39,390 bases of DNA from Escherichia phage HF4s, in the sequence record MT833387.1; one strand, written 5' to 3'. The notes under the pieces are model-generated. The model was not told where the DNA came from. It saw only the letters and a program-made list of their open reading frames with translations, and did not search any database. The first letter of the stretch is position 1. The number at the start of each line of letters is the position of its first letter. Position numbers and translations under genes: made by a program. This document shows positions 36,542 to 39,380 of this stretch, piece by piece.

Positions 36542-36616
36542 GGGTCAGTCGTATAAAGGTCATTACGGAAGGCTGTTAACCTTCTTATCGTGGTTCGAGT
36601 CCACGCTGTCCCGCCA
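36542..36616 (+). tRNA. tRNA-Asn (anticodon GUU), phage-encoded
   Basis: Cloverleaf by hand: acceptor GGGTCAG/CTGTCCC (one mismatch), anticodon stem GAAGG/CCTTC with loop CTGTTAA, T-arm CGTGG-TTCGAGT-CCACG, encoded CCA. Confidence 0.55.
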
Positions 36617-36621
36617 AATAT

Positions 36622-36697
36622 GCTGGTTTAGCTCCAATGGTAGAGCAGTCGCCTTGTAAGCGAATGGGTAGCGGTTCAAGTCCGTTAACCAGCACCA
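36622..36697 (+). tRNA. tRNA-Thr (anticodon UGU), phage-encoded
   Basis: Perfect 7-bp acceptor GCTGGTT/AACCAGC, D-arm GCTC-CAATGGTA-GAGC, anticodon loop CTTGTAA, T-arm AGCGG-TTCAAGT-CCGTT, encoded CCA. Confidence 0.6.
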
Positions 36698-36939: not shown

Positions 36940-37263
36940 ATGAAGATGCCAGAAAAACATGACCTGTTAGCCGCCATTCTCGCGGCAAAGGAACAAGGCA
37001 TCGGGGCAATCCTTGCGTTTGCAATGGCGTACCTTCGCGGCAGATATAATGGCGGTGCGTTTACAAAAACAGTAATCGACGCAACGATGTGCGCCATTAT
37101 CGCCTGGTTCATTCGTGACCTTCTCGACTTCGCCGGACTAAGTAGCAATCTCGCTTATATAACTAGCGTGTTCATCGGCTACATCGGTACTGACTCGATT
37201 GGTTCGCTTATCAAACGCTTCGCTGCTAAAAAAGCCGGAGTAGAAGATGGTGGAAATCAATAA
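36940..37263 (+). CDS. S: holin, lambda S type with dual start
   Basis: 107 aa, essentially identical to lambda S ([22 protein letters not shown]...); upstream stem-loop as in lambda. Confidence 0.95.
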
Positions 37264-37723
37264 TCAACGTAAGGCGTTCCTCGATATGCTGGCGTGGTCA
37301 GAGGGAACTGATAACGGACGTCAGAAAACCAGAAATCATGGTTATGACGTCATTGTAGGCGGAGAGCTATTCACTGATTACTCCGATCATCCTCGCAAAC
37401 TTGTCACGCTAAACCCAAAACTCAAATCAACAGCAGCCGGGCGCTATCAGCTTCTTTCCCGTTGGTGGGATGCCTACCGCAAGCAACTTGGCCTGAAAGA
37501 CTTCTCTCCGAAAAGCCAGGACGCTGTGGCATTGCAGCAGATTAAAGAGCGTGGCGCTCTACCGATGATTGATCGCGGTGATATTCGTCAGGCAATCGAC
37601 CGTTGCAGCAATATATGGGCTTCACTTCCGGGGGCTGGTTATGGTCAGTTCGAGCATAAGGCTGACAGCCTGATTGCAAAATTCAAAGAAGCTGGCGGAA
37701 CAGTCAGAGAGATTGAGGTATGA
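37247..37723 (+). CDS. R: endolysin, lambda R-type lytic transglycosylase
   Basis: 158 aa, near-identical to lambda R. Confidence 0.95.
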
Positions 37724-38157
37724 GCAGAGTAACCGCGATTATCTCCGCTCTGGTTATCTGCATCATCGTCTGTCTGTCATGGGCTGTTAATCACTACCGT
37801 GATAACGCCATCGCCTACAAAGAACAGCGTGATAAGGCCGCATCCATAATCGCTGATATGCAGAAGCGTCAACGTGATGTAGCAGAACTTGACGCCAGAT
37901 ACACAAAGGAGCTTGCTGATGCTAACGCGACTATCGAAAGTCTCCGTGCTGATGTTTCTGCTGGGCGTAAGCGCCTGCAAGTCGCCGCCACCTGTGCAAA
38001 GTCAACGACCGGAGCCAGCGGCATGGGCGATGGAGAAAGCCCAAGACTTACAGCAGATGCTGAACTCAATTATTACCGTCTCCGAAGTGGAATCGACAAG
38101 ATAACCGCGCAGGTTAACTACCTGCAGGAATACATCAGGACGCAATGCCTTCGATGA
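37720..38157 (+). CDS. Rz: spanin inner-membrane subunit Rz
   Basis: 145 aa; N-terminal TM helix identical to lambda Rz, divergent coiled-coil periplasmic part. Confidence 0.9.
37919..38104 (+). CDS. Rz1: spanin outer-membrane lipoprotein Rz1, embedded in Rz (+1 frame)
   Basis: Embedded ORF with signal peptide ending in lipobox-like VSAC followed by a Pro-rich segment. Confidence 0.75.
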
Positions 38158-38331
38158 TAGCGATAATTTTACTCATCATCCTTCACATCTGGCTCTGTAG
38201 ACAGGGTGATGATCACTTCTGGAGTGAATCCAGATTAAACATCTCATTGCTGATGCTTGATATTGAGCATCTTGCGCGCGGTAAGGGGCTGCGTTGAGAT
38301 AAGAGCCAGTCATTACAAATACCAGGATTTA

Positions 38332-38355
38332 GCCTCGCATTCGCGGGGCTTTTTA
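38332..38355 (+). terminator. intrinsic terminator-like hairpin
   Basis: 7-bp stem GCCTCGC/GCGGGGC with ATTC loop followed by TTTTT. Confidence 0.5.
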
Positions 38356-38375
38356 TTGCAACAAAGGTAAAGACG

Positions 38376-38663
38376 ATGGATGAAGAATATCGTAAAGACC
38401 TGCAACTGTGGTTTGGTCTTACGCATGCGCCGTTCTGCGTGATGCCGCGAGTATTCATGGAGGCTATGCCGCCAGAATGGCAAGAGAAGATGGCTCAGTT
38501 GCTTTTTGAGTATAGCGACACAATCAAAACGGATGTCTGCGGAGTTCACAGCTGTTTTGTTACTGCCAAAGACAGCAACAACCGCTTTATGAGGATGCCA
38601 GAAGATATTCTGAACTATCGTCATCCCCGACGTGAATTCATCGAATCAGTTCTGAAGAAGTAG
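38376..38663 (+). CDS. hypothetical lambdoid protein downstream of the lysis cassette
   Basis: 95-aa ORF with upstream AAAGG RBS. Confidence 0.55.
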   Translation: MDEEYRKDLQLWFGLTHAPFCVMPRVFMEAMPPEWQEKMAQLLFEYSDTIKTDVCGVHSCFVTAKDSNNRFMRMPEDILNYRHPRREFIESVLKK

Positions 38664-38909
38664 CCATTACAAAGCCTATCTACTGGTGGGCTTGATAATG
38701 AAACCAGAATTTATTCTTGGCAACCAGTTACGGCAGTACAGCGAAACAACCCAAGCCAGTAAGTGGGGAAATAACACTGGCAGCCACTGAAAGATGAACC
38801 TCCTGCCTTATGGCAAAAAGATTCTTTGTGGTGGCGGACTGATGGAAAGACATCTGTTATTGCAGAGACCATTCAATGAGTGGTCTCGACAATGGCTTAT
38901 ACCCTGCAC

Positions 38910-38956: not shown

Positions 38957-39199
38957 ATGGCAGAGATTATTCCCATGACTGAAGAACAGAAATTCCAGTT
39001 AGAGATTTACAAGCTGGTAATGAACCAGAACGCAGCCGCAGAGGAAGCATTTCAATTCATCGGCACTGACGAGCTGAAGCTTGAGTTATTCAAAATTCAC
39101 TTCCAGTCAGGCGGCGCTAATTCAGATATCACGACCCGCACAATCGAAGCGGTACGTAAATCGAAGGAAGCGTTAGACCTGTTCACTACCGGAGCATGA
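38957..39199 (+). CDS. hypothetical protein
   Basis: 80-aa ORF upstream of terS. Confidence 0.5.
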   Translation: MAEIIPMTEEQKFQLEIYKLVMNQNAAAEEAFQFIGTDELKLELFKIHFQSGGANSDITTRTIEAVRKSKEALDLFTTGA

Positions 39200-39200
39200 T

Positions 39201-39380
39201 GTGAGCCGCGTAATCAATTTGGGTAAGGAGAAGAAATTTCCAATTACTCAAGAGCTATACGAGCGGCTGGAAAGCGTCATTCATGATTACGATGGTGAAA
39301 TCAGTTTATGCGAGGCGATTGGCACACTCGAATTGCTGAAGCAGTCACTGATTGAAGGCGCGAAAGAGTCCTCAACCTGA
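39201..39380 (+). CDS. hypothetical small protein (GTG start)
   Basis: 59-aa ORF starting at a GTG preceded by GGAG, 1 nt after the previous stop; last gene before terS on the circular map. Confidence 0.4.
   Translation: MSRVINLGKEKKFPITQELYERLESVIHDYDGEISLCEAIGTLELLKQSLIEGAKESST

Follow-up and report, generated by a model that had tools for sequence, protein, structure and literature searches.

The window analysed here is the whole 39,390-nt stretch of Escherichia phage HF4s DNA (sequence record MT833387.1). Its lysis cassette includes a lambda-S-like holin gene at 36940–37263 and, on the plus strand, the i-spanin gene Rz (PF03245) at 37720–38157. The o-spanin gene Rz1 would lie within Rz, also on the plus strand, at 37919–38104, coordinates that were transferred from the annotation of phages Sf101 and epsilon34. 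Just upstream of the holin gene are two tRNA genes, tRNA-Asn(GTT) at 36542–36616 and tRNA-Thr(TGT) at 36622–36697; the phage L genome paper describes tRNA genes at the same position, one of them with a GUU anticodon. Two further regions of the window, 38957–39199 and 39201–39380, were also singled out.

A small ORF begins where Rz, its upstream cistron, ends. Its ATG (38154–38156) overlaps the Rz stop TGA (38155–38157) as ATGA, and the sequence across the overlap, 38143–38162, is caATGccttcgATGAtagcg. The ORF occupies 38154–38297 on the plus strand and consists of 47 codons followed by an in-frame TGA at 38295–38297, as determined from the sequence, its translation and alignment with relatives. 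The initial annotation had placed the ORF correctly but mis-measured it. The overlap and the opening residues that it reported agree with translation from 38154, but its length of 28 codons was wrong, and the stop that it put at 38238–38240 is absent from this frame; the TAA at 38236–38238 is out of frame, and the in-frame codons read TTA AAC. A 50-codon form (38145–38297, plus strand) begins at an in-frame ATG 4 nt after AGGA (38137–38140) and is the form used in GenBank and RefSeq records and in PHROG 11822. This upstream ATG sits within the last Rz codons, CAA TGC, and is absent from Klebsiella-type Rz (CAG TGC). By alignment, the start of relatives of 44–46 aa is homologous to ATG 38154. 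The same 2.9 kb of sequence contains 51 ORFs of at least 20 aa, including several of 45–100 aa in evidently non-coding frames. Judged from the window alone, the small ORF is not beyond chance, and the case that it is more than that comes from its relatives only.

The ORF product matches PHROG 11822 over its full length (residues 1–50 on profile positions 1–50, E 5.5e-38), a family with no function annotated. Megablast of positions 38100–38400 against phage records returned 177 records, most of them 95–99% identical, from P22-like and lambdoid phages of Escherichia, Salmonella and Shigella. Records for epsilon34 (gp67) and g341c (gene 62) call the 50-aa ORF a 'conserved hypothetical protein', those for Sf101 (Sf101_0062) and Ayreon a 'hypothetical protein', and that for Sf6 'gene 65 protein'. 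Sf6 gene 65, epsilon34 gp67, g341c gene 62 and Sf101_0062 are the same ORF, with 97–99% nucleotide identity, the same position after Rz/Rz1, the same 50-aa annotation and no substantive difference. The segment was also found in 1959 of 5426 complete E. coli genomes; there, the product carries the PGAP label 'hypothetical protein'. The small ORF is already known, then, to public annotation and to PHROGs, as a hypothetical protein. Literature searches for its function, expression or genetics found nothing, and searches of Pfam, NCBIfam, PADLOC and PDB sequences with its product gave no match.

More distant relatives were reached by lower-stringency blastn, which identified Klebsiella phages with a 45-codon ORF right after Rz (MLILFILLSIWLCRLSEKPGWFKVSHIISMLALEDEHPARGKGLR), and by protein searches (65 and 24 protein clusters), which added versions from Klebsiella, Raoultella and Kluyvera with identities down to ~50%, nearly all of them 44–46 aa long. 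All homologues tested match PHROG 11822, those of the Klebsiella/Kluyvera type with E values of 1e-10 to 1e-13. The family consensus is MLxLFILLSIWLCRLxExxxWxxVSxxISxLxLExEHPARGKGLR. Among 1.84 billion cluster representatives, a profile search picked out 27 proteins at E ≤ 0.001. The family members among these are 44–50 aa long or are extended versions of such proteins; two others, repetitive proteins as long as 491 and 711 aa, seem spurious. The family as a whole is small.

The peptide has a hydrophobic N-terminus, an Arg, a variable acidic middle in which a single Trp is conserved, and a basic tail, ARGKGLR, that is conserved too. The N-terminal block (38154–38198, plus strand) is a likely transmembrane helix, with a dN/dS of 0.26–0.31. 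It is a single hydrophobic block of 12–18 residues, short (12–15) in most relatives. AlphaFold predicted one long helix, with a pLDDT of 89 over the first 10 residues and 67 overall, a low-confidence model. The suggestion in the initial annotation of a possible small membrane peptide is supported by these features, by membership of the PHROG 11822 family, by the position after the spanins and by the open frame in divergent relatives.

Comparison with known classes of small phage and host proteins gave partial likenesses. Holins and antiholins, such as lambda S105/S107, are likewise small, hydrophobic, encoded in the lysis cassette and charged at the C-terminus. The ORF product, however, has a single short hydrophobic segment and matches no Pfam, NCBIfam or PHROG holin or antiholin family, and the window already has its lambda-S-like holin. 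No spanin lipobox was found in the peptide, whose Cys stands in the context I-W-L-C without [ASG] at −1, and Rz and Rz1 are already present. Type I toxins (Hok, TisB, Ldr) are also ~50 aa long, with an N-terminal hydrophobic helix and possible long-range mRNA pairing. Unlike them, the small ORF appears as a coupled cistron of a late operon, and no promoter, antisense RNA gene or promoter for one, or family match was detected; a search for promoter-like sites near the ORF on either strand found none, and Rfam gave no hit above noise. Accessory genes of lysis cassettes that tune lysis include T4 RI and RIII, P1 LydB and P2 LysA. The phiKZ gp143 gene is likewise an extra small gene in a holin–endolysin–spanin cluster, non-essential and expressed late, but has no sequence relationship to the ORF described here; its product is cytoplasmic and is reported to act via the cognate holin (PMC12894885).

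At all loci examined, the small ORF is the closing cistron of the lysis cassette and comes straight after the final lysis gene. That gene belongs to one of at least five unrelated kinds: Rz (PF03245), DUF2514, three different lipoprotein o-spanin-like genes, and a gene for a 58-aa two-helix protein. The cassettes encode at least four holin families, and endolysins of the lysozyme, glycoside hydrolase 19 or CHAP type. A partner specific to one holin is therefore unlikely, since the peptide accompanies several unrelated holin families. Translation signals were found to be kept across these contexts. Most non-E. coli relatives have AGGTGA or GAGGT 4–6 nt ahead of the ATG, and such sites occur in three upstream coding contexts that are unrelated; the motif at −9 from the start reads GAGGT(A/G)A, AGGTGA or AAGGTGA. 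In other relatives, an ATGA or TAATG overlap joins the start to the stop of the gene before it. The AGGT motif has been lost in the E. coli type, where initiation would rely either on the ATGA overlap or on the upstream ATG preceded by AGGA. Such ATGA overlaps are normal in lambdoid gene packing (10.1101/2020.10.05.325894).

Similarity limits among relatives define a mosaic module at 38122–38355 (plus strand), made up of the 3′-terminal 36 nt of Rz, the small ORF and a terminator. This module is common to lambdoid and P22-like phages whose Rz genes otherwise differ, with at least 94% identity. In 54 of 84 loci, similarity sets in at 38122, within the final 12 codons of Rz; in most loci it stops at 38354–38359. 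The sharp boundary at 38122 indicates that different Rz genes have the same 3′ end. The intrinsic terminator, AGCCTCGC-ATTC-GCGGGGCT followed by TTTTT (38331–38355, plus strand), is annotated in epsilon34 and Ayreon. When loci were anchored on the Rz 3′ end, only ~40% carried the small ORF; in the remaining ~60%, Rz is followed by ~40 nt of unrelated sequence and then by the homologous terminator. The small ORF is therefore an optional module, absent from ~60% of phages with the same Rz 3′ end.

A covarying stem-loop of the form CATTACA-[9–10 bp stem]-GATAATG lies further downstream, at 38665–38700 on the plus strand. In Klebsiella-type loci this junction hairpin follows the ORF stop by 11–14 nt. 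Across 28 distinct versions, 98.8% of cells were paired, and eight of ten inner pairs had changed on both sides. None of 500 shuffles reached the observed score, and slid controls gave 33–50% pairing. The flanks do not vary and, as CAUUA/UAAUG, could lengthen the stem. The hairpin has no U tract and no Rfam match; the Rfam search returned noise only, far below gathering scores. It always lies on the plus strand, 3′ of the lysis cassette, whether or not the small ORF is there, being present in 44 of 91 ORF-less loci, 325–1209 nt after Rz, and it marks the exact joint to many different upstream genes. Because it is present without the ORF and joins many genes, the hairpin is an independent boundary element rather than part of the gene. 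A reading of CATTACA...GATAAT as a sigma-70 promoter was rejected on inspection, as the spacer is ~23 nt. In the window, an inserted segment (38319–38664) between CATTACAAA repeats carries the terminator and displaces the hairpin from the small ORF. The CATTACA at 38311–38317 (plus strand), which in relatives is the left edge of the hairpin, is here cut off from it by the insertion. The segment also holds a 95-aa ORF (38376–38663) that matches PHROG 3527 in its C-terminal part only (139–230 of 233), and is for that reason probably a truncated moron gene.

Selection on the small ORF was examined at two depths. A first set of loci had been picked by protein identity, which biases it towards synonymous change, so it was discarded for selection tests and the loci were re-sampled with DNA anchors lying outside the ORF or at its 3′ end. 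The shallow sample, of the E. coli/Salmonella/Shigella type, comprised 134 loci defined by DNA anchors flanking the ORF, with 61 distinct ORF sequences. Non-synonymous, synonymous and stop-creating substitutions numbered 36:18:2, against a neutral expectation of 37:17:2; a stricter count gave 27:15:2 against 30:12.5:1.7. At the same loci, non-synonymous to synonymous counts were 28:125 for endolysin R, 12:20 for holin S and 27:36 for the N-terminal part of Rz, all far from neutral. In E. coli-type copies, the peptide sequence is thus without detectable constraint, whereas purifying selection on R, S and Rz is clear. Disrupted alleles were found as well, namely two independent nonsense alleles at W16, one frameshift and some stop-loss variants. 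A genome-contig scan with the terminator as anchor yielded only four loci, one from E. albertii and three from MAGs labelled non-enterobacterial. These three (L304, L306 and L307, labelled Cellvibrionaceae, Collinsella and Bacillota) are exact matches to the E. coli-phage terminator segment and are probably binning or contamination artefacts.

For the deep sample, viral and metagenome contigs were searched with the final 29 nt of the Klebsiella-type ORF as anchor, which leaves out fully decayed copies. One such copy is found in Klebsiella phage ST147-VIM1phi7.2 (L309, 1420–1560), where the ORF has in-frame stops and lies beside rearranged Rz/Rz1 fragments, indicating that the gene can be lost by decay. 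All 37 distinct 138-nt stretches in the deep sample were free of stops and indels. The start was ATG in 33, GTG in one, ATA or ATT in two, and two codons upstream in one. In the middle 45 nt there were 1.27 distinct substitutions per site; ~5.1 changes to a stop codon were to be expected, and none proved real. The lengths of the adjacent non-coding spacer and of the hairpin loop vary. Nei–Gojobori dN/dS was calculated by block for the anchored sample and for 14 divergent representatives. The N-terminal hydrophobic block gave 0.26 in the anchored sample (1.35 and 2.62 in the shifted frames) and 0.31 in the representatives; the middle block gave 0.70 and 0.93, respectively. Codons 30–36 reached 1.6 in the anchored sample, and the C-terminal part gave 0.63 in the representatives. 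Clear purifying selection is limited to the N-terminal block. Conservation of the frame in relatives had been proposed at the outset as a test of the ORF, and its outcome was mixed, though the frame itself is kept.

These data could also be read to mean that the segment is conserved mainly as nucleic acid, as a module boundary or structured RNA at the 3′ end of the lysis cassette, with the frame tolerated or decaying, at least in the E. coli type. The neutral substitutions of the E. coli-type copies beside constrained neighbour genes, the roughly neutral rate at which nonsense, frameshift and stop-loss alleles occur, and the mosaic joints at both ends of the segment are all in keeping with this. 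So is the sequence around the stop. The decamer that follows it, GATAAGAGCC (38298–38307, plus strand), is non-coding and is conserved in nearly all family members. Its AGAGCC (38302–38307) is complementary to GGCTCT (38191–38196) inside the ORF, and RNAalifold paired both; it also paired AUCUCA (38241–38246) with UGAGAU (38295–38300) across the stop codon. Together, the two complementary pairs would close a domain of ~110 nt. The fold predicted for the window RNA has a z-score of −3.1 and uses these same helices. Part of the conservation may be at the RNA or DNA level, since identity runs 10 nt past the stop in a sequence complementary to a block of the ORF. However, the ORF-internal helices never vary and so offer no test by covariation, and they are mismatched in three family members (L314, L415 and L412). 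The Klebsiella sequence has a different minimum-energy fold without them, and polymorphism density is equal at predicted paired and unpaired positions (0.43 versus 0.42). The case for RNA structure inside the ORF is weak. Conservation as nucleic acid would also leave unexplained why the ATG and ribosome site are kept in unrelated contexts, why the hypervariable middle is free of stops and indels, and why the N-terminal block is biased to synonymous change, and two family members (L414 and L417) retain the peptide without the downstream conserved nucleotides. We consider this explanation unlikely, though it is the main rival to a coding sequence.

It might instead be the act of translation that matters and not the peptide. 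A coupling or leader-like ORF would park terminating ribosomes 11–14 nt before the junction hairpin and so modulate RNA folding, 3′-end formation or the stability of the lysis message; here, the distance from the ORF stop to the terminator is 34 nt. The invariant length of 44–47 codons around a nearly neutral middle would fit such a role, as would the stop-to-hairpin distance conserved in Klebsiella-type loci, the predicted helix that takes in the stop codon, and a GGGGCT within the final codons, the same as in the 3′ arm of the hairpin or terminator further downstream. In lambda, though, Q-modified late transcription should ignore terminators. Inserted DNA parts the ORF from the hairpin in the window and in most E. 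coli-type loci, the hairpin is also present without the ORF, and the selected hydrophobic N-terminus would be left unexplained. In a check for a leader-peptide attenuator, candidate helices were present but invariant, and insertions often lay between the ORF and the terminator or hairpin. An effect of translation as such is thought improbable.

A chance ORF in an intergenic spacer is very improbable. ORFs of similar size are common in non-coding frames nearby, and the ribosome-binding site before ATG 38154 is weak, as stated in the initial annotation, which took the ORF to be possibly fortuitous for that reason; the weakness stands, but the stop/start overlaps and the AGGTGA/GAGGT sites of relatives argue against the conclusion. 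Homologues down to ~50% identity keep the same length, start and ribosome site and occupy the same position although their lysis cassettes are unrelated, and comparative data of this kind already contradict chance.

The last alternative, a true gene on the opposite strand, bor-like or another moron, has next to nothing to recommend it: one reverse frame is stop-free across the ORF in 36 of 38 relatives, but the reverse ORFs of the window (38176–38313, 45 aa; 38213–38458, 81 aa) are not conserved, differing among relatives in start, frame and length because the spacer has 1–4-nt indels, they have no PHROG match, the 81-aa ORF spans a mosaic boundary, and the reverse strand has no promoter-like site. 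Lambda bor does share with the small ORF the slot just 3′ of Rz, but it is an opposite-strand lipoprotein gene, and neither a conserved opposite-strand ORF nor a lipobox occurs here. The comparison with bor drawn in the initial annotation is irrelevant, since the opposite strand holds no conserved gene.

We therefore return to the small ORF as a coding sequence. It is probably a genuine but dispensable and weakly constrained protein-coding gene, the last cistron of the late lysis cassette. Translation is hard to avoid because the ATG and ribosome site are conserved across unrelated contexts and the length is invariant, and because the hypervariable middle has no stops or indels and the N-terminus is biased to synonymous change. 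The gene is dispensable and under weak selection at most, since in E. coli-type phages it evolves as if neutral, has null alleles and is often missing. It would be transcribed with S-R-Rz/Rz1 from the late promoter and translated by termination–reinitiation at the AUGA overlap with Rz, or alternatively from the ATG 9 nt upstream behind AGGA. The product would be a peptide of 47–50 residues with an N-terminal hydrophobic helix and a basic tail, located in the inner membrane late in infection and acting on the host membrane or a host component. The sequences show the ORF, its family and position, the conservation of frame and ribosome site, and selection on the N-terminus; translation, membrane insertion and any part played in lysis are inferred. 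A membrane peptide that acts on the host is most likely. Since the peptide travels with unrelated holins, endolysins and spanins, its action would be directed at the host rather than at one lysis protein. A role in lysis timing is a guess, made by analogy with accessory lysis-cassette genes such as phiKZ gp143 (PMC12894885).

A bolder reading, to which we give only a small chance, is that the peptide and the conserved nucleotides around its stop form an unrecognized fifth component of the lysis cassette in temperate phages of Enterobacteriaceae. The component would be a host-directed inner-membrane peptide whose translation is coupled to RNA folding at the boundary between lysis and packaging. 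It might, for example, perturb the energization of the membrane and so set or sharpen holin triggering, or protect the lysing cell from superinfection.

What is new here is the corrected coordinates of the ORF, the wider family with its constant place as the closing gene of lysis cassettes that are themselves unrelated, and a frame conserved at depth although substitutions among close copies look neutral. Any function would be minor or conditional, given the near-neutral evolution in E. coli-type phages. If functional, the peptide would nevertheless be an accessory player added to one of the best-studied phage gene cassettes, carried by the P22-like model phages Sf6, HK620, CUS-3 and epsilon34, in which a knockout is easily made, and by roughly one in three complete E. 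coli genomes, O157:H7 prophages among them.
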